Assembly (NCBI GenBank): GCA_944388645.1
Contig: CALXJO010000001.1
Location: 1-31,598 of the forward strand
DNA length: 31,598 nt
Source: an uncultured Clostridia bacterium
GTDB lineage: Bacteria > Bacillota > Clostridia > TANB77 > CAG-508
Reading direction: 5' to 3'
This document shows positions 2,997 to 21,285 of the stretch, one piece after another (positions within the stretch are counted from its first letter, which is position 1; the number at the start of each line of letters is the position of its first letter). The notes beneath the pieces were generated by a model. It worked only from the letters and a program-made list of their open reading frames with translations, did no database searches and was not told where the DNA came from. Made by a program: the position numbers and the translations under genes.

Positions 2997-5333
2997 TTAT
3001 TTTTTTCTTAGATTATATTCATATACCTTTACATTTTTTACAAAACTTGTAAATTCATCTTTCAATATGTTTATATTAAATTCATCTTTATTTACAAGGT
3101 CCAAGTTATATAAATCCATATTTATTAAACTTTCTTGTGATATATCCATTCCTAAAGGAAGTGTTTTGTTATTATTTTCAAAAAATGTTATATTTGAATA
3201 AAATACTAATTTTGTGCCTTCTGGTATATTTATCTTATACAAATTGGTTTCTTTTGAAGTTGCTATTTTTTCTAAGTTATTTAATGTTTCAAATGGATTA
3301 ATACTAAATTTATCAAAACCTTCTGGATCAATTTTTTCATTACTTGCTTTATATAATGAGATATCATATGGAACTTCTATTTTTTCAGATTCTTCAATTA
3401 AGCTTTGTCTTAAATCTTTTAATTTATCTGTAAACTCAGCTATTTCAGTATTTAAGTTAACATTTAAAACTTTAAACTTATCTTTTTCTACTTCTCTATG
3501 TTTATTATTTTTTAGCACTTTTATTTTTGTTTTGTCTTCACTAATGTTTCCAAAAATATCAAAATCCTTTTTCTCTATTTTTTCTATGTCTTTTTTATAC
3601 TCTTGCTTTAATTCTTCTAATATATTAGAAATTTTTTCTTGATCTTTTTTTAGAAGTTTGTTTTTAGAAACTATATTAATTCCATCTAAAACAAAATTTG
3701 AAGCAAAAATAGCATCTAATTCTTGTTCTGATAGTTCTTCTCTTTGTTTAGTATCAATTTGATTTGCGAAGTCTTCAATATCTTCTTCATAATCAAATGT
3801 TTTCTTTAAGACTTGCTTTTCTTCTTTTTCTTCTTCGTCACCTTCTGCAAGCATCTTTGATTCATCTTTATTTGCATATTTCCAAAATTCAAATATGCTC
3901 TTTTTATGGCTTTCTATTTCATCTAGATATTCTGTTGCGTTATTTAATTTTTTTTCTAGATTTTCTACTTTATTCTTTAAGGCTTCTAAATCTAGTTTAG
4001 CATTTTTATTTTCTTTATTATTTTCATTTAATTGTGAACCAATTTTTATTATATCTTCTACAGTATATTTCTTAGTATAAATTTCATCATTATAATGAGT
4101 ACTTTCTTCTTTATCTTGTTCTAATATATCTTTCATTCTATTTTTATTAGCATTGTTTGTTTCCTCATTATTTTCTTCCTTTTTCTTTTTCTTACCTTTG
4201 AAAAAGTACTTTATTTTTCCCATAAAAGTTTTTCTACATTCAAGAAACATTACTATTTCTTTTTCTTTTCTTAAATACTCTTGATTAAGTTCTTCTGCTT
4301 TTTTGTCTAAATCTTTAATATCAGCTTTTATTTCTATTGTTTCTATTTTTACTTTATCATTTTCTTGTATTTTAGATATAGCTTCATCTTTTAGAAAATC
4401 TGGTAGATTATCATATTCAATTTTTTTATTTTTATAAAAGAAATCTAATCCACCATCACTACTGATTTTTACATCAAATTTATATTCATGTTGTAAGTCA
4501 TATGCTAATATGCATAAAGCTTTTATTAATTTATAAATTTTGCCTGCTTCTTTTTTATCTTTTAAAATTATTCTATATTTACTTGTCATCTTGTCATAAA
4601 TTTGTGTTTGACCTACTATCTGTAGAAAAGTTTTTCCATCTTTATCTGTAATTTCATAAATTGATGGCCAATCTCTTGTAAAATACCATAAATAATTTTC
4701 TAAATCTGATATCTCAGATTTTTTTAATATTTTTTCTGAATATTCTTCATTACTTATTGGCACAAATATTTTTTCTTCTTTTTTGCTTCTACTTTTATTT
4801 TCCTCTATTTTTCTTTTTAAAAGATAAAACATTGGAGAATTATCAGTTTCATTTGTAGAAGCTAGCATGAAATATTTGTCTGCATAATCTGAATAAAAAA
4901 TTTGCCATTTAAAATTATTTGTAAATTTTACATCAAAAGGAATTTCTTTATCAAATTCTTCCTGTTCTTTTGCAATGGCTTTTATATCTGATATATTTGT
5001 TTCATTAATCATCTTTAAGAAATATGCATATTTTTCAATGTCTTCATTTGTCTCTGGCTTCATATAAGTAAACAAAGGACTTGCTAACTTATATCTTTCT
5101 GATAAATCATCTAGTCTGTCCTTTGGAGTTATTAATATCTCTATATCGCTTACATTAACATATTTGTATACTTTATATGTTGTCTCTTCATACACTCTTG
5201 GCACTCTATAATTAAGTGGCTCAAACTCCTTCAAAAAAGCTGGTACTTTTTCTAATTCAAAGCCTATATAATTTACTTTGTTTGTTAATATATTTAAATT
5301 TTCAGTATTTCCTTTTACTACTTTTCTTGGCAT
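2997..5333 (-). CDS. Large Lys/Glu-rich hypothetical protein with central coiled coils
   Basis: Long open frame. Start moved to ATG 5333 (MPRKVVK), which has GGAGG 7 nt upstream. No confident family. Confidence 0.8.
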   Translation of the reverse strand: MPRKVVKGNTENLNILTNKVNYIGFELEKVPAFLKEFEPLNYRVPRVYEETTYKVYKYVNVSDIEILITPKDRLDDLSERYKLASPLFTYMKPETNEDIEKYAYFLKMINETNISDIKAIAKEQEEFDKEIPFDVKFTNNFKWQIFYSDYADKYFMLASTNETDNSPMFYLLKRKIEENKSRSKKEEKIFVPISNEEYSEKILKKSEISDLENYLWYFTRDWPSIYEITDKDGKTFLQIVGQTQIYDKMTSKYRIILKDKKEAGKIYKLIKALCILAYDLQHEYKFDVKISSDGGLDFFYKNKKIEYDNLPDFLKDEAISKIQENDKVKIETIEIKADIKDLDKKAEELNQEYLRKEKEIVMFLECRKTFMGKIKYFFKGKKKKKEENNEETNNANKNRMKDILEQDKEESTHYNDEIYTKKYTVEDIIKIGSQLNENNKENKNAKLDLEALKNKVENLEKKLNNATEYLDEIESHKKSIFEFWKYANKDESKMLAEGDEEEKEEKQVLKKTFDYEEDIEDFANQIDTKQREELSEQELDAIFASNFVLDGINIVSKNKLLKKDQEKISNILEELKQEYKKDIEKIEKKDFDIFGNISEDKTKIKVLKNNKHREVEKDKFKVLNVNLNTEIAEFTDKLKDLRQSLIEESEKIEVPYDISLYKASNEKIDPEGFDKFSINPFETLNNLEKIATSKETNLYKINIPEGTKLVFYSNITFFENNNKTLPLGMDISQESLINMDLYNLDLVNKDEFNINILKDEFTSFVKNVKVYEYNLRKK

Positions 5334-5401
5334 TTGTATTCCTCCAATTTTATGTGCTTTTTTCAATTAAAAGTTAGTATATCATAATCTTTTTAATATT
5401 A

Positions 5402-7235: not shown

Positions 7236-9251
7236 TTATTCAAATGTGTATGAAGTTGTTGTATTTAGGTCTATTGTTTGTGTTCTGGTCCAGTTTCCAC
7301 CATTATTATCTGTAATAGTTAGTTTTACTTCTACTCTACCTGTTCCTGATATTGATACTTTTTTATTTTCTGTATTTTTATCTACATTAGAGTCTGTATA
7401 TTTTTCTTCTCCATTTACAGTTACTACTATTGTAGCTGTTTTACTTACATTTGTACTTGATGTTGAACCTGTTGTATTTGTTTTAGAATCATTTGTTGAG
7501 TCTGTATTATTTGTATAGCCACCTGTTATTGATTTAACATTTATGGTTAAATCTAATGTCTTTGTTTCTGCTAATTTATTTACAGTTAGCACAACTTCTG
7601 TTCCTTCATCTATGTTTGTTCCAGAGTTTATACTTTGATTTAGAACTATACCATTATTTTTTGATGTGTCTTCTGTATATTCTACTCTTACTGTTAAGTT
7701 CTTATCTGTTAATGTTTTTCTTGCATCATCCTCTGTATAATTAACTACATTTGGCATTACTACTTGTGGTATTCCTGTTCCTATACTTACATGTATTTTA
7801 ATAGTGTCTCCAGCATTTACTGTTGTGTTTGCTTCTACTTCTTGGCTTATTACTATTCCTTCTTTTATTTCTTTGCTAGTTTCTTCTACTCTTTCTGCTT
7901 TTAATTTATTGTTCTCTAACTCTTTTACTGCTTCATCATATGTCATTCCTGCAACTTTAGGTACAACTGTTGTCTCTGTTCCTTTGCTAACTTTTACAGA
8001 AACTGTAGTATTTTCCTTTACATTGTAGTTATCGGCATATGTTGGTGTTTGTTCATATATTTGTCCTGCTGGATAATCTGAGTTATAGTCTTCTGATGTT
8101 TTCTGATAATTCAACTTATACTTTTCAAGTTCTGCTTTTGCTTGGTCTTCTGTCATTCCAACCAAATTTGGAATTTGTACATCTTTTGGAGAATTAGCAC
8201 TAAGTATTGCTGATGTAATTCCTATGCTTCCAAAGAATATTATTAAACATATTAATACTATTACTACAATTTTCATTCTTGGATGCTCTGAAAAATATTT
8301 TGCAAGTTTTCCTTGCTTTTTCTTTTTCTTCTTATAGTTTTGATCATCTAGCATATCATCAGTGATTGCATCCATTCTTCTTGTAAGACCTTCATCTAAG
8401 TCCTCTTCTTCTACAAATTCACCATCTGGATCTTTTAATGCTCTTGATAAGTCTCTAAGCATTTGTGTTGCTGTTTGATATCTTGCCATTGGTTCTTTTT
8501 GCATTGCCTTCATAATTATATCATTTACAGCTCTTGGAATGTTTTCATTTACTTCCATAGGTGGTGTTGGATCTTCTTGCATATGTTTCAATGCTACTGA
8601 TACAGATGTATCTGCATCAAATGGAACTTTTCCTGTTAGCATTTCATACATTACAACTCCTAATGAATAGATATCAGATTTTGCATCTGTATATCCTCCT
8701 TTTGCTTGTTCTGGAGAAAAGTAATGTACTGAACCAATTGTTGTTCCAAATGCTGTTATTGTTGAATTTGATACAGCTTTTGCTATACCAAAATCTGTAA
8801 CTTTAGCAACACCGTCTTCAGTTATTATTATATTATGTGGTTTTATATCTCTATGAACTATATTATTTTTATGTGCTGTTTCTAGAGCTGATGCAATTTG
8901 CATAGCTATATTTACAGACCATTTCCAAGGAAGGGCTCCTTCTTCTGTTATAATTTGCTTTAAAGTCTTTCCTCTTATTAATTCCATTACTATATAATAA
9001 ATTCCATCTTCATTTCCTACATCATATATTGATACAATATTAGGATGAGTTAAACTTGCCGCTGCTTGCGCTTCTGAATTAAATCTTTTTATAAATTCCT
9101 CATCAGTTGTAAATTCATCTTTTAAGACCTTAACAGCAACATTTCTGTTTAGTACTTTATCCTTTGCCCTGTAAACTGTTGCCATTCCTCCAACACCAGT
9201 CTTACTAATAATTTCATATCTGTTTGCTATTGTTTTTCCTATTATATCCAT
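7236..9251 (-). CDS. pknB: PASTA-domain Ser/Thr protein kinase (PknB/PrkC family)
   Basis: GVGGMATVY, VAVKVLK, HRDIKPHN, DFGIA, one transmembrane segment, three PASTA-like repeats (VQIPNLVG, VVPKVAG, VVMPNVVN). Confidence 0.95.
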   Translation of the reverse strand: MDIIGKTIANRYEIISKTGVGGMATVYRAKDKVLNRNVAVKVLKDEFTTDEEFIKRFNSEAQAAASLTHPNIVSIYDVGNEDGIYYIVMELIRGKTLKQIITEEGALPWKWSVNIAMQIASALETAHKNNIVHRDIKPHNIIITEDGVAKVTDFGIAKAVSNSTITAFGTTIGSVHYFSPEQAKGGYTDAKSDIYSLGVVMYEMLTGKVPFDADTSVSVALKHMQEDPTPPMEVNENIPRAVNDIIMKAMQKEPMARYQTATQMLRDLSRALKDPDGEFVEEEDLDEGLTRRMDAITDDMLDDQNYKKKKKKQGKLAKYFSEHPRMKIVVIVLICLIIFFGSIGITSAILSANSPKDVQIPNLVGMTEDQAKAELEKYKLNYQKTSEDYNSDYPAGQIYEQTPTYADNYNVKENTTVSVKVSKGTETTVVPKVAGMTYDEAVKELENNKLKAERVEETSKEIKEGIVISQEVEANTTVNAGDTIKIHVSIGTGIPQVVMPNVVNYTEDDARKTLTDKNLTVRVEYTEDTSKNNGIVLNQSINSGTNIDEGTEVVLTVNKLAETKTLDLTINVKSITGGYTNNTDSTNDSKTNTTGSTSSTNVSKTATIVVTVNGEEKYTDSNVDKNTENKKVSISGTGRVEVKLTITDNNGGNWTRTQTIDLNTTTSYTFE

Positions 9252-9265
9252 ACTTTTCTCCCTAC

Positions 9266-9991
9266 CTACATTATAATAACAACTGTTATGTTGTCATAAC
9301 CACCATTATCGTTTGCTTTTTTAACTAAGTTTTCAGCTGAATGTTCTTTGTCATTTTCTATTATTTCGCATATTTCATTTTCTTTTACCATGTTTGTTAA
9401 TCCATCTGATGCCATCAAAATTATATCATCTTTTATAAATGTTTTTGTATATACCTCTGGTTCAACTTCTGGCACGCATCCTAAAGCTTTAGTAAGCATA
9501 TTCTTTTTAGGATGATGAAAAGCTTCTTCTTTTGTAATTTTCCCATCTTCTATTAATGTTTGAACATAGCTATCGTCTCTTGTTATTTTTCTCATAAAGT
9601 TTTTTCTTATACGATATACTCGACTATCACCAATATGTGCAATATATATCTTACTATTATATATTAAACAGATGTCCAAAGTAGTACCCATTCCACTTAA
9701 TTCTTTTTTGCTAATTGATTTTTTGTATACAACTTCATTTGTATGTTCAATTGTTTCTGTTAATAGTTGTTCTATTTTTTCTTTTGATTCTTTATTTTTG
9801 TTAAAATGTTTTTCTATATAGTCCTTTGCAGTTTCAACAGCCATTTTACTTGCAACTTCTCCACCGTTGTAACCACCCATTCCATCAGCCAGAATAAATA
9901 GTTTTATTTTATCATCTGGTTTTGCAGCATAAAAATAGTCTTCATTTAATTTTCTTTCTCTTCCAATGTCTGTTTTGGCAAATACTTGCAT
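9266..9991 (-). CDS. stp: PP2C-family Ser/Thr phosphatase (Stp1/PrpC)
   Basis: DIGRER..NED, LADGMGG, MGTT, HIGDSR, ASDGL, GGYDNIT. Start moved to ATG 9991, which has GGAGG upstream. Confidence 0.95.
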   Translation of the reverse strand: MQVFAKTDIGRERKLNEDYFYAAKPDDKIKLFILADGMGGYNGGEVASKMAVETAKDYIEKHFNKNKESKEKIEQLLTETIEHTNEVVYKKSISKKELSGMGTTLDICLIYNSKIYIAHIGDSRVYRIRKNFMRKITRDDSYVQTLIEDGKITKEEAFHHPKKNMLTKALGCVPEVEPEVYTKTFIKDDIILMASDGLTNMVKENEICEIIENDKEHSAENLVKKANDNGGYDNITVVIIM

Positions 9992-10012
9992 ACTTCCCTC
10001 CAATCATACCAT

Positions 10013-11047
10013 TTATTGTATATTTGTATTTAAATTCTTTCTTCTTAATTGACCACACGCAGCATCTATATCAGAACCTAGTTCTCTTCTTATTGTTGCT
10101 ACAATTCCATGGTCATTTAAATAATCTCTAAACTTTATTATATTTTCATTTGAACTTTTAGTAAATTTTCCGTTTTCAATTTTATTTATTGGTATTAAAT
10201 TTACATGACATAGCATTCCTTTTAAAAGATTAACTAATTCTTTTGCATCTTTTAAATTATCATTATTATCTCGAGCTAATGCATATTCAAATGAAATTCT
10301 TTTATTTGTAATTTTTATATAATCTTTGCAGGCTTTCATTAGCTCTTCTATATTATATCTATTATTTATTGGCATCATACTTGATCTTGTTTCATCATTA
10401 CTTGCATGAAGAGATACTGATAATGTACATTGTATATTTTCTTTTGCTAAATCATATATTCTTGGAACTATTCCACTTGTTGAAACACTTATATGTCTTG
10501 CTCCTATATTTAGTCCTTTTTGATTATTCAATATCCTTATTGCTTTTATTACATTATTATAATTATCTAATGGTTCTCCTATTCCCATAAAAACTACATT
10601 AGATATTTTTTCACCAATATCTTGCTCTACTGCTAATATTTGTTCAACAATTTCCCCCGAGCTCAAATTTCTTATAAATGGTATTCCTGTAGAAGCACAG
10701 AATTTACATCCCATTTTACATCCGACTTGTGATGAAACACATATAGATTTTCCATAATGATATTGCATTAATACAGATTCTATTGCATTTCCGTCTAATA
10801 TATCAAATAAATATTTTTTTGTTCCATCTGATGATTCTAATTTTTTTAATATTTTAAAATTACATATATTATAATTTGCTTTTAGTTTTTCTCTTAATTC
10901 TAAAGATAAATTTGTCATCTCATCAAAGCTTTTTACTTTATCTACATATAACCACTTAAAGATTTGTTCTGCTCTAAAAGCTTTTTCTCCTAACTCTATA
11001 AGTTCCTGTTTTAAATCTTCTAGGTCATAGTCTTTTATATTTTTCAT
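10013..11047 (-). CDS. rlmN: Dual-specificity 23S rRNA/tRNA methyltransferase (radical SAM)
   Basis: SSQVGCKMGCKFC, MGIGEP, SLHA, VNLIPIN, DIDAACGQL. Confidence 0.95.
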   Translation of the reverse strand: MKNIKDYDLEDLKQELIELGEKAFRAEQIFKWLYVDKVKSFDEMTNLSLELREKLKANYNICNFKILKKLESSDGTKKYLFDILDGNAIESVLMQYHYGKSICVSSQVGCKMGCKFCASTGIPFIRNLSSGEIVEQILAVEQDIGEKISNVVFMGIGEPLDNYNNVIKAIRILNNQKGLNIGARHISVSTSGIVPRIYDLAKENIQCTLSVSLHASNDETRSSMMPINNRYNIEELMKACKDYIKITNKRISFEYALARDNNDNLKDAKELVNLLKGMLCHVNLIPINKIENGKFTKSSNENIIKFRDYLNDHGIVATIRRELGSDIDAACGQLRRKNLNTNIQ

Positions 11048-11103
11048 TGTTACTCTTATTTCTTCCCTTCCCCTGGGTTTTACTTTTTGATATTTACGCT
11101 ATA

Positions 11104-11132
11104 TTTATATCATATTACAACTATTTTTTCAA
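11104..11132 (-). promoter_or_regulatory. Possible SigA-type promoter for rlmN
   Basis: Minus strand TTGAAA, 17 bp ending TGA, TATAAA. Confidence 0.5.
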
Positions 11133-11153
11133 TAGTTCATATATAAAAAGAAT

Positions 11154-11375
11154 TTCGCCCATTAGGAACACCGTTACAATTCACAGCCAAATTATATTGT
11201 GTTTAGGGAACTTATATATTTTTGTAGAATTTTTCGTCTTCGCGCAGCAATTTGGAGCGAAAGCTCCAGCAAGAAGCGATAAAATTCGAAAAAATATATA
11301 AGTTCCCTTTATACGAATATTTAAAATGACTGTGAATTGTAACGGGACGCTCTTTTTAGGGCGACTATTGGGCGA
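11154..11375. repeat. Three-layer nested palindromic repeat
   Basis: Halves of the 33-bp element (TTCGCCCATTAGG 11154-11166; GACGCTCTTTTTAGGGCGA 11346-11364) enclose a perfect 16-bp inverted repeat (11171-11186 / 11330-11345), which encloses a perfect 19-bp inverted repeat (11205-11223 / 11290-11308) around a TGGAGC-GAAA-GCTCCA hairpin. Confidence 0.88.
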
Positions 11376-12606
11376 TTGTTTCTTTTAATATGTTTAAACC
11401 TTTAATAAGTGTTTCATCATCTATTGTTAATGCAGGCATTAGTTTTACAACTGAATTATTTCTTCCAGCTCTTTCTACTATTAAACCATTTTTAAAACAT
11501 TCCATTGATATTTTCTTTGCTAAGTTTCCATCATGGGTTTCTACTCCCCAGATTAAGCCAATTCCTCTTATTTCAAAGTTTTGGTTTAGAGGCTTTATTT
11601 GATTTTCTAAAAATTCTTTTACTATTTTTTCTTTTCTTTGAACTTCTTTTTCAATGTTATTTTTTTTCATAAATTCTAGACCGGCTTTTGCAGCAACTAT
11701 TGCTAGTTGATTTCCTCTAAATGTTCCATTATGCTCTCCAGGTGTCCATATGTCTAATTCTGGTTTTATTAGTGTTAAGGCAAAAGGCATTCCATACCCA
11801 CCTATTGATTTTGAAAGAGCTACCATGTCTGGAACTATTCCTGCTCTTTCAAAAGAGAAGAAAGTTCCGCTTCTTGCACATCCTACTTGTATATCATCTA
11901 CTATTAATAATATATCATTATCTGTGCAGAATTTACGTACATCTTTTAACCATTGTTTTTCAAATACCCAAATTCCACCTTCTGCTTGAACAGTTTCTAT
12001 AATTAAAGCTGCAGGTTTTTCTACTCCTGAATGATCATCATCTAATAATGTTTGCATATATTTTATTGTATCTAACTCTTTAAACATATATGGAGCAGGG
12101 ATATGTGTTACATTTTCTAAATTTACACCTGCACCTTGTCTACTTTCTTTATCACTTGTTAATGCAAGCGAACCTAATGTCATACCATGAAAACATCCCA
12201 TTAAGCACCAAATATTATTTCTCTTTTTTACTTTTCTTGCAAGTTTTAAAGCAGCTTCAACTGCATTTGTACCTGTTGGTCCAGGAAATTGTATTTTGTA
12301 GTTAAGTCCTCTTGGAATTAAAATTTCTTTTTCAAAATATTCTATAAAATCATGTTTTGCTTGTGTGTACATGTCTAGAGCATGCATTATTTTATCATCT
12401 TGTAGATATTTTATTATTTTTTCCTTTATATAATCATTATTATGTCCATAGTTAACAGCTCCAGCTCCACAGAAAAAGTCTATGTATTCTTTTCCATTAA
12501 TGTCTTTTATAATTGAGCCTTTTGCATAATCTAATACCTCATCAAAAACTCTACAATAAGATCTTACTTCAGATTCATATTTTTCAAAAACTTGTTTTTC
12601 TTCCAT
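11365..12606 (-). CDS. ectB: Diaminobutyrate--2-oxoglutarate transaminase (EctB/Dat family, class III PLP aminotransferase)
   Basis: ESEVRSYCR, DFFCGAGAVNYGHN, GPTGTNAVEAALKLARK, FHGMTLGSL, ETVQAEGG, VDDIQVGC, LSKSIGG, PGEHNGTFRGN are the EctB signature blocks. Confidence 0.9.
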   Translation of the reverse strand: MEEKQVFEKYESEVRSYCRVFDEVLDYAKGSIIKDINGKEYIDFFCGAGAVNYGHNNDYIKEKIIKYLQDDKIMHALDMYTQAKHDFIEYFEKEILIPRGLNYKIQFPGPTGTNAVEAALKLARKVKKRNNIWCLMGCFHGMTLGSLALTSDKESRQGAGVNLENVTHIPAPYMFKELDTIKYMQTLLDDDHSGVEKPAALIIETVQAEGGIWVFEKQWLKDVRKFCTDNDILLIVDDIQVGCARSGTFFSFERAGIVPDMVALSKSIGGYGMPFALTLIKPELDIWTPGEHNGTFRGNQLAIVAAKAGLEFMKKNNIEKEVQRKEKIVKEFLENQIKPLNQNFEIRGIGLIWGVETHDGNLAKKISMECFKNGLIVERAGRNNSVVKLMPALTIDDETLIKGLNILKETIAQ

Positions 12607-12661
12607 GTTAATTACTTCCTTAAATTTATTTAGGTTTTTATAAGGATTTGCCTATAAACCA

Positions 12662-13375
12662 CTAATCATAATTTGTTTCTGGATTTTCAAATTCTTTTAG
12701 ACGTATTTTATAGCAACTTACTGCTTCTTCTTCATAAGCTAGATTTATATCTTTTATTCCCATTAATTTTAAGAAATATTTAGTAAAATCTGGGTTTAGT
12801 ACTAAAATTGGTCCAAGTACATATGTGCCCATAAAGTTATTTATACGAACACCTTCAAATTTTGACTCTTCATTTATTCCTGGACCTTTCAGCGCATCAA
12901 ATAAATAATTACTACTATTATCTCCATAAGACATAGCAAACTGTGATTTAAATCCTACAATTTTTATATCTTCTATTTTTCCTAAAAATAGTGAATTATA
13001 TCTATGCATCATATCTCTTTTAGCATATAAATTTGTTATTCCTAGTCCTTCTATTCTGCTTCCATCTTCATTTTCTATATACTTTCCAAATATTTCTAAA
13101 GCATTTCCTATAACAAGAAATAACTGATTTTGTTCTATTAATTCTTTTATTTTATCTGTATATGGCTTAAGTTTTTCTATAACAAGTTCTTGTGAGTTTT
13201 CTGTCATTGGAGCCATATATATCATGTCAACTTTTTCATCTACAAATTTAGGAGTGTCTGTTAATGATGTATATATAATTTCTATGTCTTGAACTGATTT
13301 TTCTAAATATTTTATGTTATACATATTTCCAAACAAATTACATATTTCTGGAAATAATACTTCAATTTTCAGCAT
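12662..13375 (-). CDS. gatD: GatD/CobQ-like class I glutamine amidotransferase homolog, apparently catalytically inactive
   Basis: 237 aa; LFPEICNLFGN, FNSL-like YNSLFLG, IVGF, EG..NNFMGTY.LGPIL..NP architecture of GatD; overlaps the murT stop by 1 bp (TAATG). Catalytic Cys and His positions read G and L. Confidence 0.8.
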   Translation of the reverse strand: MLKIEVLFPEICNLFGNMYNIKYLEKSVQDIEIIYTSLTDTPKFVDEKVDMIYMAPMTENSQELVIEKLKPYTDKIKELIEQNQLFLVIGNALEIFGKYIENEDGSRIEGLGITNLYAKRDMMHRYNSLFLGKIEDIKIVGFKSQFAMSYGDNSSNYLFDALKGPGINEESKFEGVRINNFMGTYVLGPILVLNPDFTKYFLKLMGIKDINLAYEEEAVSCYKIRLKEFENPETNYD

Positions 13376-14817
13376 TAGTTTGCACCTCCACTTATTTGTT
13401 GTTCTTCTGTTTTATCCTTAGTACTATTTTGAATTCTGTTTTTAACTTCTGCTCTAACATCATTTGCTATTTGTTCATCATATAGTTCAAATAATATGTA
13501 TATATCTTTTTCTTTATCTAATGATAAATAATTTGCTGTTTCTTTTGGTTCTTCTGTAAATACTAATTTTTCTTTTGGAACACCTGCTATAAGTAGTCTT
13601 AAATAAAAGTCCTGTGCCCTAGGACCTCCAATTATAATCTTATCTATATCATTTGAATTTAAAAATTCAAAATCACAATCATATAGCCAAGTTATATTTT
13701 CTGAAGATTCCTTTGCATCAAATAAATCAAATAACAATAAAATTATTTCTTTTTTTCCTTTTTCACTTCTTATATAATCAAACACACATGAACAAGCAAT
13801 TGGATTTTGTCCTTTTGCCATATGGCTTACTATTTTTATTCCATTAACTTTTTCTTCCTTATATCTACTTCCTACAATATTTTCCTCATCAAAAACTTTT
13901 TGTATGTTTTCTTCTTCCATTCCGAGTTCGCAAAGTAGCGCAATTACAGCGGCCTCATTATAAATATTAAAAATACTATTAGATATTAATTTATATTCTT
14001 TTTCGCCCATTAGGGACGCCCCTTTTTGGGCGAACTTTTCATTACCATTTCTTTTTACGGCAATTTTATTTTTTTCAAAGTCTATTTTTGTTACTGCATA
14101 ATCTGGTTTTGGTGATTTAAATCCACAATTTGGACAATATGCATTTCCTATATGGTGATATCTTACATAATTGTATTTTAACTTAGCATGACATTTAGGA
14201 CATATTCTTACATCATTTATTATATTGTCAGATTCTGTTTTATCTGTATCTAATTTATCTATTGCAAAATATGTTTTTTCATTTGTAGTTCCTAATGAAC
14301 TAGAAATTAAATCATCTGCATTTAAAATTAATTTGGTTTCTACTGGCAAGTTTTTGTTTATTATGTTTAATATAAATTCAGGATGCGCATTTCTTCTTAT
14401 GGAATCTCTAAATAAATTAGTACAAACTAGATATGTTGGTTTAACATATGGAAATACTTTTGGTGAGCTTCTTTCATCTATTTCTAATACTGCAATTTCA
14501 TATTTGGTTTTATTTCTAATATTTACTCCAGATATAAAAGCTGCCGCAATTCCAGCATCAATATTAGACCCTAATCTATTATCTAGCACTTTATAATTAT
14601 TTTTATTTAATGCATCTATAATTAGATTACATACTGTTGTTTTTCCATTTGTACCTGTAACACCTATTATTTGTTTTGGTTTATCTATTTTTCCCAAAAA
14701 GTCTTTACAAATTGTTATTGCAACTCTTCCTGGAAAGAATGTTGCTTTTCTACCCAAAATTTTTAACATTGTTCTTACTATTTTTGCTGTATATAAAGCT
14801 ATATAAAATTTTATCAT
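13375..14817 (-). CDS. murT: MurT-like Mur ligase family protein with DUF1727 C-terminal domain
   Basis: FPGRVA, VTGTNGKTT, GSNIDAG, LEIDE, TNLFRD, LNADD, zinc ribbon CPKC..CPNC, C-terminal TWLYDCDFE; coupled to a gatD-like gene. Confidence 0.88.
   Translation of the reverse strand: MIKFYIALYTAKIVRTMLKILGRKATFFPGRVAITICKDFLGKIDKPKQIIGVTGTNGKTTVCNLIIDALNKNNYKVLDNRLGSNIDAGIAAAFISGVNIRNKTKYEIAVLEIDERSSPKVFPYVKPTYLVCTNLFRDSIRRNAHPEFILNIINKNLPVETKLILNADDLISSSLGTTNEKTYFAIDKLDTDKTESDNIINDVRICPKCHAKLKYNYVRYHHIGNAYCPNCGFKSPKPDYAVTKIDFEKNKIAVKRNGNEKFAQKGASLMGEKEYKLISNSIFNIYNEAAVIALLCELGMEEENIQKVFDEENIVGSRYKEEKVNGIKIVSHMAKGQNPIACSCVFDYIRSEKGKKEIILLLFDLFDAKESSENITWLYDCDFEFLNSNDIDKIIIGGPRAQDFYLRLLIAGVPKEKLVFTEEPKETANYLSLDKEKDIYILFELYDEQIANDVRAEVKNRIQNSTKDKTEEQQISGGAN
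14002..14034. repeat. 33-bp REP-like palindrome inserted in frame within murT
   Basis: TTCGCCCA..TGGGCGAA arms; its reverse complement matches the intergenic copy at 28261-28293 at 31 of 33 positions. Confidence 0.9.
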
Positions 14818-14914
14818 TTTTACCTCTTTTTAATATTATTTTAAGAATTGACCAATATAATTTATAGTTTAGCACAAGTATATATAAAAATCTAGTGTTT
14901 AGACTAAAATAATA

Positions 14915-14946
14915 GACTATATTGATAGTCATTTATCAATATAGTC
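14915..14946 (-). terminator. Intrinsic terminator overlapping the stop of the 79-aa gene
   Basis: Perfect 13-bp stem GACTATATTGATA / TATCAATATAGTC with 6-nt loop, T-rich on both sides. Confidence 0.75.
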
Positions 14947-15175
14947 TTTTTTCTATTTCTAAAACTACTTTTGCAATTTTGTTTATATGTTCATTTAGGA
15001 GTTGCACTCTCATCTCGTCTATTTCATTATATTCTTGTAATTTATTTATTCGTTTCATTGCAATAATATGATTTTTTTCTATTTTTTCTTTTATATCTTT
15101 TTGTTCGTTTATTATTACATCTAATTTTTTATTTATTTCTTCTAATATTAGTGCAAGTGTTTCTTCATTTTTCAT
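14936..15175 (-). CDS. Small hypothetical coiled-coil protein (79 aa)
   Basis: Follows aspS on the same strand, has an AGGTGG RBS, heptad-like L/I pattern and a downstream terminator. Confidence 0.7.
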   Translation of the reverse strand: MKNEETLALILEEINKKLDVIINEQKDIKEKIEKNHIIAMKRINKLQEYNEIDEMRVQLLNEHINKIAKVVLEIEKRLY

Positions 15176-15196
15176 ATAACCACCTGCCCTTTTAAT

Positions 15197-16963
15197 TTAT
15201 TTTTCATCAATTTTTATATGAACATCTTTTAATTGATAGTCTTCTACTCTACTTGGTGTATTTATCATAACATCTCTTGCTTTTTTATTTTTTGGAAATG
15301 CTATTACATCTCTAATATTTTGTGTATCTTCTATTAGCATTATCATTCTATCTAATCCTAAAGCAGCACCTGCATGTGGTGGAGTTCCATATTTAAATGC
15401 CTTATACAATGCTCCAAATTTTTCTTCTACTGTTTTTTCTTCATATCCTGCTATCTCAAAAGCTTTTACCATTAAGTCTGAATCATGATTTCTAACAGCA
15501 CCTGATGCCATTTCATAACCATTACCTACTAAATCGAATTGATATGCAACTATATCTAATGGATTGCTGTTTTGTAAAGCTTCCATTCCTCCTTGTGGCA
15601 TTGAAAATGGGTTATGATTAAAATCTATTTTTTGTTCATCTTCATTATATTCATACATTGGAAAATCTACTATAAAGCAGAATCTATATACATTTTTCTC
15701 TATTAAGTCTAATCTTTTTCCAAGTTCAATTCTAACCTGTCCCGCAATTTTTTGAGCTGTTTCTAATTTGTCTGCTATAAAGAATATACTGTCATTTTCT
15801 TTAACTCCAAGCTTTTCTTCTAAACCTTTTAGTATATCTTCTGTTATGAATTTTGCAATTCCGCCTTGAGGAGTATTATTTTCATCAATTTTTGTCCAAG
15901 CTAGACCTTTAGCACCTTGTTCTTCTACTGCAAATTCAGTCATGCTATCAAAGAATTTTCTTCCTTGTAATGCTCCATTTGGAACAACTATAGCTTTAAT
16001 TGTTTTTCCTTTAAATGCATTAAATTCACTTTCTTTAAATAGTTCTGTAGCATCTTGTATTATTAGTGGATTTCTTAAGTCTGGTTTATCTATACCGTAT
16101 TTTTCCATTGCTTCTTTATATGTAATTCTCTTAAATGGTCCTTTATCTACTTGCCAAGTTGTATGTTTTGTAAATACTGTAGTTATTAGTTCTTCTATAG
16201 TTTTTAATACATCTTCTTGGGTTGCAAAAGCCATTTCAAAATCTACTTGATAGAACTCGCCTGGTGCTCTATCTGCTCTTGGATCTTCATCTCTAAAACA
16301 AGGAGCAATTTGATAATATTTATCAAAACCAGAGATCATTAATAATTGTTTAAATTGTTGTGGTGCTTGTGGAAGAGCATAAAACTCGCCTGGGTGTAAT
16401 CTACTTGGTACTAAAAAGTCTCTTGCACCCTCTGGTGAAGAATTTGCAAGTATTGGAGTTTGAATTTCAGCAAATTTCATCTCATCCATTTTATCTCTTA
16501 TGCTTTTCATTATTTGAGAACGAAGTAATATATTATTGTGTATTTTATTATTACGTAAGTCTAAATATCTATATTCTAATCTTAAATCTTCTCTTACAGA
16601 TGAAATATCTATTTTCTCGGAATTTATTTCAAATGGAAGTGTTGGTTCACATTTTCCAAGTATTGTTATGCTTTTAGCCTCTACTTCTATTTCTCCAGTT
16701 GGTATTTTGTTGTTTTTATTTGAACGTTCTATCACTTTTCCGTCCACAGATATAACACATTCTGTGTAAATTTGTGACATTTGCTCTTTTAGGCTTTCAT
16801 CAGAAATTGTAATTTGTGTAATTCCATATTGATCTCTTAAATCTATAAAAGTCATTCCCCCAAGATTTCTAATTCTTTGAATCCAACCAGCAAGTCTTAC
16901 TTCTTGTCCTACATTATTAATATTTAATTCCCCACAGTTATGATTTCTATATTCATTTGCCAT
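15197..16963 (-). CDS. aspS: Aspartate--tRNA ligase
   Basis: RNHNCGEL, RNLGGMTFIDLRD, SSPEGARDF, ALPQAPQQFKQLLM, CFRDED, NHNPFSMP, GYEMASG, PPHAG, GLDR. Confidence 0.95.
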   Translation of the reverse strand: MANEYRNHNCGELNINNVGQEVRLAGWIQRIRNLGGMTFIDLRDQYGITQITISDESLKEQMSQIYTECVISVDGKVIERSNKNNKIPTGEIEVEAKSITILGKCEPTLPFEINSEKIDISSVREDLRLEYRYLDLRNNKIHNNILLRSQIMKSIRDKMDEMKFAEIQTPILANSSPEGARDFLVPSRLHPGEFYALPQAPQQFKQLLMISGFDKYYQIAPCFRDEDPRADRAPGEFYQVDFEMAFATQEDVLKTIEELITTVFTKHTTWQVDKGPFKRITYKEAMEKYGIDKPDLRNPLIIQDATELFKESEFNAFKGKTIKAIVVPNGALQGRKFFDSMTEFAVEEQGAKGLAWTKIDENNTPQGGIAKFITEDILKGLEEKLGVKENDSIFFIADKLETAQKIAGQVRIELGKRLDLIEKNVYRFCFIVDFPMYEYNEDEQKIDFNHNPFSMPQGGMEALQNSNPLDIVAYQFDLVGNGYEMASGAVRNHDSDLMVKAFEIAGYEEKTVEEKFGALYKAFKYGTPPHAGAALGLDRMIMLIEDTQNIRDVIAFPKNKKARDVMINTPSRVEDYQLKDVHIKIDEK

Positions 16964-17033
16964 TTTTTAATTTTCATTCCTTTCTAACTCATATGCTTAT
17001 ATATTTTATACCTTTTTGCCTCAAAAGTCCATA

Positions 17034-18503
17034 TTATTTGCGCTCATATATTGAAAAATAATCATCTTCATATAATTTATTATAATTTTCGTCTTTGTTT
17101 AGATATGTATTAATTCTTTCTGTATTATATACTATTGCATAATCTATATCATACTTATCAAATAAATCATCATAATGCATCTCACCATTTACAACATTAT
17201 ACCAATCTTCCAATATATCTACATTATTAAATTCTCTACAATATACCTCACATCTTGAGTCTATAAATGTTTTTATTCCTTTAAATTCTAAATAACTTCC
17301 AAAATTAAAGTGATCATATATCCTCATGTTTTGATAATCTAAATTGTTTAAAATATATTCTGTTGCATCAACTGGATAAGCTGTTTTATCAACATATTCT
17401 TCTTTGGTTCTTTGTACTATATTAGGAAGCATAAATATTAAAATAAATATTCCAAGTAAAGTAATTACAGAGTTTTTATTTAGTTTGCTTTCAAGTTTTT
17501 CAAGTAATTTTTCATTATCATAAGTCTCAAAAAAATTATTTACAAGTCTAGTTAATGGTATCATTCCTATTATAAAGAAAAATGATTGATTTCTTACTGC
17601 AAGTATCGCCATTATGAACAATCCGAAAAATAATAATAAGTCTCTTACTTTTATCTTAGCTTTTGTTGCTAAAGCTATAATTACATATACAACTAACATA
17701 CTGCACATTCCAACAGATGTTAATAAATTTGTTGGTTGAAGTTCTAATATAAACTCAGAAGATATGCTCCCCATTACTTTAAACATATATATGTGTGTAT
17801 ATGTTCCAATTGGTGATAAAAAGCTTCCTATTAAAAGTAAAATTAATGTAATTACAAGTGGTTTTATTTTTAAATCTTCAATTACAAGCTTTATATCTTT
17901 TTTCTTTTTTATTATTTTATTTAATATTGCCTCTGCTAAAAATGGCATAACTAATATTATAGTAACTGGCCATACTGATGCATGGAAGTTTACTATAAAC
18001 ACAGATATTAAAAATAAATATATATAATATCTCTTTTTATTAGTCGTTAGTAATCTTTCTATAAAAAATACTTCTAGTAATAAACATAAATACGAGATTA
18101 TTTGTGCTCTTGCTGTAAATGTTCCAATCCCTGCCATTATAAGTGAAGAACATACTGTAGCAATAAATGCTAATACTACATTATTTTTTTGTTTTATTAA
18201 AATATAAAATAATGAAAGCATTGTAATAACAGCTATAATCATTACAAATATGTAAATTCCAGTAAAACCAGTGCTATTATATAAAAGAGTCATTATCATA
18301 TCAAAAGCCCATCTTAGCTTATAAAATGTAAGCCCTTCATGCCATGTTAAATGATCCATATTATCATAGCCATTTGCTAGCATTTCTCTTCCTGTGGCAA
18401 TTGTAAAAAATATATCATTTTGCATTACTCTTCTAACAGACACAGCTGTAATAAATATTATAAAAATCGCTAATATAATATAAACCTTTTTATTCCTCTT
18501 CAT
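17034..18503 (-). CDS. Polytopic membrane protein, possible GT-C-type glycosyltransferase
   Basis: Many hydrophobic segments; early loop NDIFFTIATG and C-terminal FNFGSYL..FIDSR pattern resemble uncharacterised GT-C-like families. Function is inference. Confidence 0.6.
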   Translation of the reverse strand: MKRNKKVYIILAIFIIFITAVSVRRVMQNDIFFTIATGREMLANGYDNMDHLTWHEGLTFYKLRWAFDMIMTLLYNSTGFTGIYIFVMIIAVITMLSLFYILIKQKNNVVLAFIATVCSSLIMAGIGTFTARAQIISYLCLLLEVFFIERLLTTNKKRYYIYLFLISVFIVNFHASVWPVTIILVMPFLAEAILNKIIKKKKDIKLVIEDLKIKPLVITLILLLIGSFLSPIGTYTHIYMFKVMGSISSEFILELQPTNLLTSVGMCSMLVVYVIIALATKAKIKVRDLLLFFGLFIMAILAVRNQSFFFIIGMIPLTRLVNNFFETYDNEKLLEKLESKLNKNSVITLLGIFILIFMLPNIVQRTKEEYVDKTAYPVDATEYILNNLDYQNMRIYDHFNFGSYLEFKGIKTFIDSRCEVYCREFNNVDILEDWYNVVNGEMHYDDLFDKYDIDYAIVYNTERINTYLNKDENYNKLYEDDYFSIYERK

Positions 18504-18584
18504 TTATAAAATTCTCCAATCTCTAATATAAATAACATTCTACCGTAAATTTCCTATTTTTTCAATATTTCGCACTAATATTCC

Positions 18585-18613
18585 TTGATTTTTTCCTATT
18601 ATCAATGTATAAT
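18585..18613 (+). promoter_or_regulatory. SigA-type promoter for asnS
   Basis: TTGATT (18585-18590), 17 bp, TATAAT (18608-18613). Confidence 0.7.
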
Positions 18614-18647
18614 TTATTCTAATTTGAATAGATGGGAGATGTTAGTT

Positions 18648-20036
18648 ATGGAAAAAATAACAATTAAAGATTTATATCGTAAAACATCTGATTATATTGA
18701 TAAAGATGTAGAAGTTTCTGGATGGGTTAGAACTTTAAGAGATTCAAAAACATTTGGTTTTATTGAAGTGAATGATGGATCTTTTTTTAAGAATTTACAA
18801 ATTGTATTTAATGATACTCTTTCTAATTTTGAAGAAATCTGTAAATTATCTATTAGTTCTACAATTATAGTTCAAGGTAAAATTGTTAAAACAGAAAATG
18901 CAAAACAACCTTTTGAAATGCATGCAAGTTCAGTAGAAGTTTTTAATTTATCTGACTCTAGCTATCCTCTTCAAAAGAAAAGACATTCTTTTGAATTTTT
19001 AAGAACTGTTGCACATTTACGTCCAAGAACTAATACATTTAGTGCTGTGTTTAGAATTAGAAGTGTTGCAGCTTTTGCAATTCATGAATATTTTCAAAAT
19101 AATGGCTATGTGTATGTAAATACACCTATTATTACTTGTGCTGATTGTGAAGGTTCAGCAGAAATGTTTAAATTAACTACATTAGATTTAGATAAACCAT
19201 TACCTACAAAAGATGGTAAAACAGATTTTTCAGAAGATATTTTTGGAAAGAAAGCTTTTATAACAGGTTCTGGACAACTACATGGGGAGACTTTTGCTGC
19301 AGCTTTTGGTAAAATTTATACATTTGGACCAACTCTTCGTTCAGAAAATTCAAATACCAAAACACATGCAAACGAATTTTGGATGATTGAACCAGAAATT
19401 TCATTTTGTGATTTAGAGCAATTGATGGATATTGAAGAAGATTTCTTAAAATATATAGTAAAAACTGTATTAGAAAAATGCCCTGAAGAAATAGCTTTTT
19501 GTGATCAGTTTGTTGAAAAAGGATTAATTGATAAATTAAACAGATTAATCAATTCAGACTTTGTTAGAATTGACCATAAAGAAGCAATCGATTTATTAAA
19601 GAAGGCTGATAGAAAATGGGAATTTACTCCAGAATATGGTGAAGATTTAGCAAAAGAACATGAAAAATATATTACAGAATATTATAATGGCCCTGTTTTT
19701 GTAAAGAATTGGCCAAAAGATATTAAATCTTACTATATGAAAGTTAATCCAGATGGAAAAACAGTTGCAGCTGTTGACCTAGAGGTTCCAGGTGCTGGAG
19801 AAATTATGGGTGGTTCTCAAAGAGAGGAAGATTATGATAAATTAGTAGCTCGTATGAAAGATATGGGAATTGATACAGAGCAATTATATTGGTATTTAGA
19901 GCTACGTAAATATGGTTCTAATATACATTCAGGTTTTGGTCTTGGTTTTGAAAGACTTCTTATGTACATTACAGGTATGGAAAATATTAGAGATGTTATT
20001 CCTTACCCAAGAACACCAAATAACTGTGATTTTTAA
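18648..20036 (+). CDS. asnS: Asparagine--tRNA ligase
   Basis: GWVRT, FIEVNDGS, LRPRTN, SGQL, YTFGPT.RSENSNT, EFWMIEPE, EIMGGSQRE, HSGFGLGFER. Start moved to ATG 18648, which has GGGAG upstream. Confidence 0.93.
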   Translation: MEKITIKDLYRKTSDYIDKDVEVSGWVRTLRDSKTFGFIEVNDGSFFKNLQIVFNDTLSNFEEICKLSISSTIIVQGKIVKTENAKQPFEMHASSVEVFNLSDSSYPLQKKRHSFEFLRTVAHLRPRTNTFSAVFRIRSVAAFAIHEYFQNNGYVYVNTPIITCADCEGSAEMFKLTTLDLDKPLPTKDGKTDFSEDIFGKKAFITGSGQLHGETFAAAFGKIYTFGPTLRSENSNTKTHANEFWMIEPEISFCDLEQLMDIEEDFLKYIVKTVLEKCPEEIAFCDQFVEKGLIDKLNRLINSDFVRIDHKEAIDLLKKADRKWEFTPEYGEDLAKEHEKYITEYYNGPVFVKNWPKDIKSYYMKVNPDGKTVAAVDLEVPGAGEIMGGSQREEDYDKLVARMKDMGIDTEQLYWYLELRKYGSNIHSGFGLGFERLLMYITGMENIRDVIPYPRTPNNCDF

Positions 20037-20058
20037 TTTAATTTTTTAGATAAAGAAA

Positions 20059-20088
20059 TAGCCGGCACCAAATTCATGGTGCCGGCTA
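20059..20088 (-). terminator. GC-rich terminator hairpin H1
   Basis: Perfect 12-bp stem TAGCCGGCACCA / TGGTGCCGGCTA; U-tract only on the minus strand. Confidence 0.8.
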
Positions 20089-20095
20089 AAAAGAA

Positions 20096-20125
20096 CAGCT
20101 GGTGCCCAATTAATGGCACCAGCTG
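20096..20125 (-). terminator. GC-rich terminator hairpin H2 for the 60-aa gene
   Basis: Perfect 11-bp stem CAGCTGGTGCC / GGCACCAGCTG followed on the minus strand by TTCTTTTT. Confidence 0.82.
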
Positions 20126-20158
20126 CAGGGGGGTAGTCTAGGCTAGGCTTTCTTGTCT

Positions 20159-20341
20159 TTAGACAAGTCCGCTTTTGCACCAGACCGAAAACAGGCCCTC
20201 AGTGGCCGAAGGAACCACCGTTGTACGAACGGGCAGTCTCTCCTTAAGGAAACCTGCAAGACTATGGGCTTCCTGTTCATCGGTTGGAATACCGACTGCA
20301 GTCCACCCTTGCTTTTCGGCTTCCTTTGCAGTACTCGGCAT
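20159..20341 (-). CDS. GC-rich small hypothetical protein (60 aa), unit C
   Basis: AAGGAGGT RBS before ATG 20341, dedicated promoter and terminator; 29 of 60 G+C in line 20221. MPSTAKEAEKQGWTAVGIPTDEQEAHSLAGFLKERLPVRTTVVPSATEGLFSVWCKSGLV. Confidence 0.72.
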   Translation of the reverse strand: MPSTAKEAEKQGWTAVGIPTDEQEAHSLAGFLKERLPVRTTVVPSATEGLFSVWCKSGLV

Positions 20342-20388
20342 TGGCGTGTACCTCCTTTTTTGTACTTCCTTTTTCAAGGATACTATTT

Positions 20389-20417
20389 ATTATACCACAT
20401 TTTTTTCTTTTTTTCAA
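20389..20417 (-). promoter_or_regulatory. Extended -10 SigA-type promoter of unit C
   Basis: Minus strand TTGAAA, 17 bp ending TGTGG, TATAAT. Confidence 0.8.
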
Positions 20418-20475
20418 ATCAAGATACAAGTTTGACCCTATATTCATATTACAAAATTTGACAAAATTCCACTTT

Positions 20476-21285
20476 TTATTTCTTTTCATTTTTATCAAAA
20501 TTTATTTTTTGTCTTACATATTCATATAACACTATACCTGTTGCAACAGAAGCATTTAAGCTCTCTGTTCTTCCTAGCATTGGTATTTTTACTTTATTAT
20601 CAGCTAATTCCTGTACTTCTTTTGATACCCCATTGGCTTCGTTTCCAATTACTATTACTTTTTTCTTATAATCTATATTATATATGCTGTCTTCTGTATC
20701 TAGAGATGTTACTACTACTTTAAATTTATTCTTCTTTATTTCTTTTAATGTTTGAACTAAATTGTCTGTTTCAATTATTTTTACTCTAAATATTGCTCCC
20801 ATTGTAGATCTTACAACCTTTGGATTATATGGGTCTGCTGTGTTTTTTGTAATAATTATTTGGTTTAAGTTTACGCTATCTGCTGTTCTTAAAATAGTTC
20901 CTAAATTTCCTGGATCTTGTATCCCATCTAATGCAAGTATTAAATCTTGGTTATAATCTATATTACTATCTCTTCCTGGCTTTTCTATTACAGCTAAAAT
21001 TCCTTGTGGAGCTACTACATCTGTTAAAGTGCTAAAAACTTTCTTACTTACATATATACAGTTATATTTTGCAATCTCATATAGTAACTTTTGGCTTATT
21101 TCTTCCGCTTCTACACACTCTTCACAAATAACTATCTTATTTATCTTTGCACGTTCTGCAATTGCTTCTTCAATTATCTTTATTCCCTCAATTATATATA
21201 AGCCTTCTTCATCTCTATATTTCTTCTCTTTTAGCTTTTTTAAGCCCTTAATTATCTCATTATCTTTACTCGTAATAACTTGCAT
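20476..21285 (-). CDS. TrmH/SpoU family RNA 2'-O-methyltransferase
   Basis: IQDPGNLGTILRTA, VRSTMGA, VIGNEANG, IPMLGRTESLNASVA. Confidence 0.93.
   Translation of the reverse strand: MQVITSKDNEIIKGLKKLKEKKYRDEEGLYIIEGIKIIEEAIAERAKINKIVICEECVEAEEISQKLLYEIAKYNCIYVSKKVFSTLTDVVAPQGILAVIEKPGRDSNIDYNQDLILALDGIQDPGNLGTILRTADSVNLNQIIITKNTADPYNPKVVRSTMGAIFRVKIIETDNLVQTLKEIKKNKFKVVVTSLDTEDSIYNIDYKKKVIVIGNEANGVSKEVQELADNKVKIPMLGRTESLNASVATGIVLYEYVRQKINFDKNEKK

Follow-up and report, generated by a model that had tools for sequence, protein, structure and literature searches.

Several Gram-positive bacteria cannot live without the amidation of D-Glu by MurT/GatD, which has been studied as a drug target. 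In Staphylococcus aureus and Streptococcus pneumoniae (structures 6gs2, 7q8e and 6fqb), an overlapping two-gene operon encodes a ligase with a Mur-ligase central domain, a Cys4 ribbon and a MurT_C domain, together with a GatD partner of the class I amidotransferase fold. Glycine, diamines and group B bridges on the D-Glu carboxyl have long been known, and in the literature we searched we found an assigned gene for none of them; the ligase gene for diamine attachment in Selenomonas and Veillonella, for example, is unnamed in PMC10628300 (2023) and PMC12826042 (2025). Here we describe a three-gene locus, murT-gatD-ectB, in a 31,598-nucleotide (nt) stretch of DNA (the window) from contig CALXJO010000001.1 of an uncultured Clostridia bacterium (assembly GCA_944388645.1). 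Its MurT/GatD-like pair has kept the residues of the ligase and lost those of the glutaminase, and the adjoining gene encodes an EctB-type diaminobutyrate transaminase.

The pair shares with its S. aureus and S. pneumoniae counterparts all of the features listed above, and a heterodimer interface is predicted. Unlike in those complexes, Cys94, His189, the GGG loop and MurT Asp349 are all replaced here, the profile scores amount to about one quarter (MurT) and one sixth (GatD) of the equivalog cut-offs, and a gene for an EctB-type transaminase accompanies the pair. The Cys-to-Gly change is the same as that in the S. aureus GatD C94G mutant (PMC3266927). However, C94G is a laboratory mutant studied at pH 8.5, whereas the change described here is natural, ancient and family-wide, and stands in a pocket that has been remodelled further. 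As in Selenomonas and Veillonella, which attach cadaverine and putrescine, the wall would be of the meso-diaminopimelate (mDAP) type and may bear an amine on the same D-Glu alpha-carboxyl. Selenomonas and Veillonella are diderms whose diamines are imported or come from decarboxylases, whereas here no decarboxylase of the three families searched was found and the candidate donor is a diamino acid. Finally, the transaminase matches the EctB of the ectoine pathway and the Dat of the diaminopropane pathway over its full length and above the curated cut-offs, but no ectA, ectC or ddc was found to accompany it, and the gene occurs in wall-synthesis operons.

Our verdict from sequence comparison is that the pair is probably a glutamine-independent D-Glu ligase. 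In the mechanism that we propose, a two-subunit ATP-dependent ligase would act on the D-Glu alpha-carboxyl of a lipid-linked wall precursor without using glutamine, GatD would be retained as a non-catalytic partner required by MurT, and the nucleophile would arrive at MurT as a free amine. The EctB-type transaminase, presumably co-transcribed, would provide that amine, L-2,4-diaminobutyrate (Dab) or a close omega-amine, which would be ligated in place of, or beside, ammonia; in relatives that carry no ectB, the pair would draw on ammonia or whatever other amine is available. We infer three parts of this proposal, namely the acceptor (the D-Glu of lipid II), the requirement for GatD and the identity of the amine. 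That an EctB-derived amine, whether Dab or another, is used instead of or beside ammonia seems to us a real possibility, at somewhat short of an even chance. More tentatively still, we suggest that the glutaminase-dead MurT/GatD family could be the missing enzymes for non-ammonia substituents of the D-Glu alpha-carboxyl, with the donor set by supply genes that are gained and lost beside the pair (Dab in the case of ectB, ornithine in that of an arginase). This operon might then lead to a Dab-decorated, positively charged mDAP-type wall, of which we found no description in the literature searched.

A family in gut Clostridia that appears to have kept the ligase and discarded the use of glutamine offers a concrete candidate for non-ammonia D-Glu substituents, and the state of the D-Glu alters the recognition of wall fragments by host receptors (stated for NOD1, PMC11132681). 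Even if ammonia should prove to be the only donor, an ammonia-dependent amidase with a pseudo-enzyme partner would be new for MurT/GatD.

The MurT-like ligase and its GatD-like partner

The murT-like gene (13375-14817, minus strand) encodes a putative ATP-dependent ligase of 480 amino acids (aa), in which the ATP-ligase site (the GTNGKTT P-loop, EIDE and TNLFRD), the Cys4 zinc ribbon and MurT_C are all intact; the ligase motifs are kept in 66-69 of 69 relatives. The protein scores 88.8 bits against MurT_C and 27.7 bits against Mur_ligase_M, and its top matches in the PDB are the MurT proteins of S. aureus and S. pneumoniae, at E values of 3e-55 and 4e-47, respectively. The gatD-like gene (12662-13375, minus strand) overlaps murT by 1 nt and encodes a putative pseudo-glutaminase of 237 aa, with a GATase_3 score of 38.2 bits and a match to S. 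aureus GatD (6gs2_A) at an E value of 4e-17.

Against the NCBIfam equivalogs both proteins stay well below the cut-offs, MurT with 215 and 196 bits against 800, and GatD with 71 and 67 bits against 450 and 400, respectively. Scores this low would suit an enzyme with another substrate, that is, a MurT acting on teichoic acid, capsule or a soluble precursor, or an EctB that acts on another amine or converts Dab to aspartate semialdehyde. In keeping with this, neither a source nor a sink of aspartate semialdehyde (asd, hom or dapA) was found in the source assembly (genome G000; 1.08 Mb in 149 contigs, 88% complete) or in its sister G016, and the neighbours of dead pairs in other taxa include MBOAT/GDSL, glycosyltransferase and flippase-like genes. 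However, the best structural relatives of the two proteins are all lipid II MurT/GatD, the zinc ribbon, MurT_C and the interface are retained, EctB exceeds its curated equivalog cut-off over its full length, and the locus adjoins a PASTA kinase and other wall-linked genes. We consider other substrates of this kind unlikely.

The first-pass annotation of this DNA took the glutaminase to be lost, and the substitutions bear it out, across the family and with the ligase half intact. When aligned with S. aureus GatD, the partner has Gly for Cys94 and Leu (Leu186) for His189, and A55-P56-M57 stand in place of the GGG loop, identified as the oxyanion hole in work on the pneumococcal structure (PMC6085368). 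Arg125, which corresponds to the glutamine-binding Arg128, is retained. On the ligase side, Asp349 of S. aureus MurT, which reportedly completes the glutaminase triad, aligns with Asn374, and Asn is found at this position in 52 of the 69 relatives. The equivalent pneumococcal residue, Asp355, points into the GatD site (PMC6085368). The DNAADGRD stretch of MurT is also remodelled in the present protein and contains an invariant Glu (Glu373).

The MurT-like and GatD-like proteins are predicted to bind each other. Their complex model scored 0.92, against 0.05 for the best control, and a mark of 0.92 was attained by 51 of 78 solved complexes and by 2 of 108 mismatched pairs; solved MurT/GatD homologues may contribute to the score. 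The modelled interface brings together GatD residues 122-129, which include Arg125, and 187-189, which lie beside Leu186, with ligase residues 370-380.

A dead glutaminase with an intact ligase would also be expected of an isoglutamine synthase that forms ordinary D-isoglutamine on lipid II from free ammonia only, in which GatD would be structural or activating and EctB would serve some other wall-related or unrelated purpose. Ammonia is expected to be plentiful in the gut, and the retention of GatD can be likened to the case of the ammonia-dependent carbamoyl-phosphate synthetase I, which has a dead glutaminase domain. The same Cys-to-Gly change in S. aureus GatD abolished the use of glutamine and left NH3-dependent amidation intact at pH 8.5, while MurT alone was inactive (PMC3266927; see also PMC6085368).

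Distribution of glutaminase-dead pairs

A HMMER pass over 1.84 billion cluster representatives returned 1290 relatives, of which 194 reach E<=1e-30. Among the 129 full-length GatD-like representatives of 50%-identity clusters, Cys occupies the nucleophile position in none and the His is present in one, and Asn91 and Arg125 are each 93% conserved. The dead forms share the conserved motifs GNAxE and GTYxxGP. GatD proteins that have neither the Cys nor the His were found in all 21 genomes of the genus, as well as in other genera of the family and in other families of the order. Among named strains, Coprococcus ammoniilyticus H1_22 (locus L087) also has a dead pair. The present genome has a single MurT/GatD pair, with no further MurT or GatD homologue and four ordinary Mur ligases, and each related genome searched has one pair. 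Within the same family, canonical Cys/His GatD occurs in three genera and dead forms in the others; of 399 genomes sampled evenly across the class Clostridia, 35 gave a match, dead and canonical pairs both included. The ratio of non-synonymous to synonymous substitution rates (dN/dS) against the nearest relative is 0.18 for murT, 0.16 for gatD and 0.07 for ectB, which is the most constrained of the three; all three values point to purifying selection.

Because the Cys is missing from all 129 representatives, dN/dS is low, the pair is the sole one in its genome, and canonical and dead forms replace each other among sister genera, we take the dead MurT/GatD to be a large conserved family and not a case of gene decay. 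No paper describing such a family was found in the literature searched. The either-or occurrence of the two forms further suggests that both may fill one slot in wall synthesis, the modification of the D-Glu alpha-carboxyl.

A shared role of this kind, with one pair per genome and the canonical form alternating with the dead one among the genera of a single family, is also what an enzyme that uses only ammonia would predict, and most members of the family have no amine-supplying neighbour. However, the former glutamine pocket is not drifting, given the conservation of Asn91 and Arg125 and the invariance of MurT Glu373, and ammonia alone would leave unexplained the arginase, ATP-grasp and similar genes that stand beside dead pairs. 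In another Clostridia family, for example, a gene for an ATP-grasp ligase lies directly upstream of the dead pairs. Tandem murT-gatD duplicates, with both copies of the dead type, were seen in two Lachnospiraceae metagenome-assembled genomes (loci L092 and L099) and at a third locus, L110.

ectB, wall type and the amine donor

The ectB/dat-type gene (11365-12606, minus strand) encodes a predicted diaminobutyrate--2-oxoglutarate transaminase of 413 aa. It scores 588.7 bits against the EctB equivalog TIGR02407 (cut-off 552.2), over its full length (residues 5-412), and 610 against PRK09264 (cut-off 438). The first-pass annotation reported no ectA, ectC or decarboxylase in the window, and we found this to be correct, with the same outcome for the genome as a whole. 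Searches of the window and of the 88%-complete genome yielded neither ectA nor ectC, the result for ectC being the weaker since its control was negative in all 14 control genomes; nor were amino-acid decarboxylases of families PF02784, PF00282 and PF01276 found in either, or ddc in the genome. The apparent absence of an ectoine or diaminopropane route for Dab is supported by these searches.

It had been asked whether ectB goes together with a GatD that has neither Cys nor His. In one direction it does: ectB adjoins the pair in seven of the eight ectB-bearing genomes and lies in the dcw cluster in the eighth (G026). In the other direction it does not, as only 8 of 61 related genomes have ectB at all. 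Across 70 species-level loci, the gene is downstream of gatD in nine and upstream of murT in six (15 of 70, in two orientations). In the MurT tree, the downstream form makes up one clade with internal losses, and the upstream form is spread over at least two distinct clades. Two scaffolds whose neighbourhoods are unrelated to the present locus carry murT-gatD-ectB-alr followed by a flippase-like gene (L142) and ectB-murT-gatD with a 12-nt gap (L144). The dcw arrangement, seen in G026 and on two metagenome scaffolds, reads mraZ, mraW, an unknown gene, pyrB, pyrI, ectB, a gene for a PASTA-bearing penicillin-binding protein (PBP), murE and mraY. At loci L129 (G026), L143 and L145, pyrB and pyrI were inserted together with ectB in dcw, between the mraW/ftsL-like genes and the PBP gene.

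In three species of the genus, an arginase-family gene occupies the place directly downstream of gatD that ectB has here. It scores 211.9 bits against TIGR01229, just below the cut-off of 227.6, and the family is present in 5 of the 21 genomes of the genus; in these sister species it could possibly be a supplier of ornithine. A 609-aa EctB match (P0155) was considered as a GatD-EctB fusion and rejected, because it does not resemble GatD and an internal portion of EctB is repeated in it.

A linkage of ectB to the pair and to wall genes that is far above chance, in several arrangements, is supported by these comparisons. Because ectB recurs beside the pair or inside wall operons, and no ectA, ectC or decarboxylase of the three families searched was found, we conclude that the EctB-type transaminase appears to be tied to wall synthesis and that MurT is the obvious candidate for the user of its product. 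The recurrence of ectB in such places, in at least four arrangements, is left unexplained if the pair uses ammonia only.

A Dab residue on D-Glu brings to mind a classical group B peptidoglycan, in which MurT would put Dab on the D-Glu to form a 2-4 cross-bridge, and the first-pass annotation had raised the possibility of such a bridge. The chemistry matches, with an amine on the D-Glu alpha-carboxyl. However, MurE of both G000 and G026 carries DNPR, the motif of mDAP-adding enzymes, and walls of group B are not known to have mDAP at position 3. In addition, no Dab racemase was found, most relatives have no ectB, and the racemase encoded beside ectB on scaffold L142, which we had considered as a basic-amino-acid racemase, was identified as an ordinary alanine racemase. 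We regard a group B wall as very improbable here. The idea that MurE itself might be the Dab-adding enzyme was likewise dropped, given DNPR in both MurE sequences examined. As for the source of the mDAP, searches of G000 and G016 found no lysA-type decarboxylases and none of asd, hom, dapA and dapF, and the bacterium may rely on imported diaminopimelate or an analogue. Across the genus, the pattern of these genes is patchy.

Several observations weigh against an EctB-derived donor. Of the 61 relatives, 53 have no ectB and mostly retain the pair, and within the ectB clade itself ectB has been lost with the pair retained (L035 and L036). No alignment column separates the ectB-linked MurT or GatD proteins from the unlinked ones, so that either the pair acts alike everywhere or the supply, rather than the enzyme, sets the donor. 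Neither G000 nor the 100%-complete G016 yielded asd, hom, dapA or dapF when searched. Of the seven ectB-bearing genomes of the genus, only three have asd, and in G026 the gene is broken. Aspartate semialdehyde, the usual substrate of EctB, has no visible source here, which we leave unexplained; the puzzle is sharpened by the constraint on ectB, the strongest among the three genes. The grouping of ectB with pyrB and pyrI in dcw could be a chance co-insertion, and the RNA contig that spans gatD and ectB, described below, might derive from carried-over DNA. Moreover, ammonia is the simpler donor, because lipid II is still amidated in vitro when S. aureus MurT is paired with GatD C94G and given free ammonia (PMC3266927).

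The lack of specificity residues that track ectB, and of an asd found to feed EctB, also favours ammonia as the sole donor, an explanation that we take seriously and hold to be only a little less likely than an EctB-derived donor. The suggestion that MurT uses Dab or a derived amine comes through in part: the linkage of ectB to wall genes and the failure to find another route for Dab speak for it, whereas the occurrence of the pair apart from ectB in most relatives, the lack of distinguishing residues, the missing asd and the simplicity of ammonia speak against it.

Operon structure and surrounding features

The arrangement first described for the three genes, co-oriented with a 1-nt overlap and a 55-nt gap, was recovered exactly, on the minus strand. 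The gatD-ectB spacer (12607-12661, minus strand, 55 nt) carries a ribosome-binding site, AAGGAAG, 8 nt ahead of the ATG of ectB, and a terminator-like hairpin was looked for in it and none was seen. A likely promoter region for the operon (14818-14947, minus strand) comprises a hairpin and then an AT-rich leader with an AAGAGG ribosome-binding site before murT; the hairpin, of 14-15 bp at 14914-14947, closes a small open reading frame (ORF) upstream of murT. At the other end, the region between ectB and rlmN holds a repeat (11173-11323) that resembles a miniature inverted-repeat transposable element (MITE), has long inverted arms and may serve as the 3' end of the operon. Given the ribosome-binding sites before murT and ectB, the hairpin-free spacer, and the flanking hairpin and inverted-repeat element, murT, gatD and ectB look like a single operon. 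The MITE-like element recurs, in lengths of about 150, 90 and 60 nt, on more than 20 of the genome's contigs.

A 192-nt contig from a chicken-gut metatranscriptome library matches positions 12528-12719 with zero mismatches and extends across the full spacer, 79 nt into ectB on one side and 58 nt into gatD on the other. This fits read-through transcription from gatD into ectB, although the contig alone is not proof of a single transcript. Metatranscriptome contigs are strandless, and all matching runs are contigs, so depth cannot rank expression. The public sequencing runs that contain the stretch are chiefly chicken-gut metagenomes.

Within murT, a 34-nt GC-rich palindromic repeat (14001-14034) forms an in-frame insertion that gives the product 12 extra aa, absent from every relative, including the nearest at 80% identity. 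The 16-nt core of the repeat, CGCCCCTTTTTGGGCG, is present in 32 copies in the 1.08-Mb genome, mostly intergenic and often as inverted pairs. Contigs from the public runs end at this repeat.

The window is AT-rich, at about 27% G+C, and the operon is flanked by housekeeping genes. Downstream are rlmN, an Stp phosphatase, the PASTA Ser/Thr kinase, rsgA and rpe; upstream are asnS, a 489-aa gene, aspS and a 79-aa ORF. An Rfam scan of 9000-21000 gave no matches, and neither the 489-aa ORF (17034-18503, minus strand) nor a 789-aa ORF (2997-5366, minus strand) has a Pfam or NCBIfam match. The 489-aa gene is kept between asnS and aspS across the genus. The 79-aa ORF (14936-15175, minus strand), between aspS and murT, has no Pfam match, carries its own ribosome-binding site and ends before the 14-15-bp hairpin; unannotated ORFs of 79-81 aa, matched by position and size, stand at the equivalent place in relatives.

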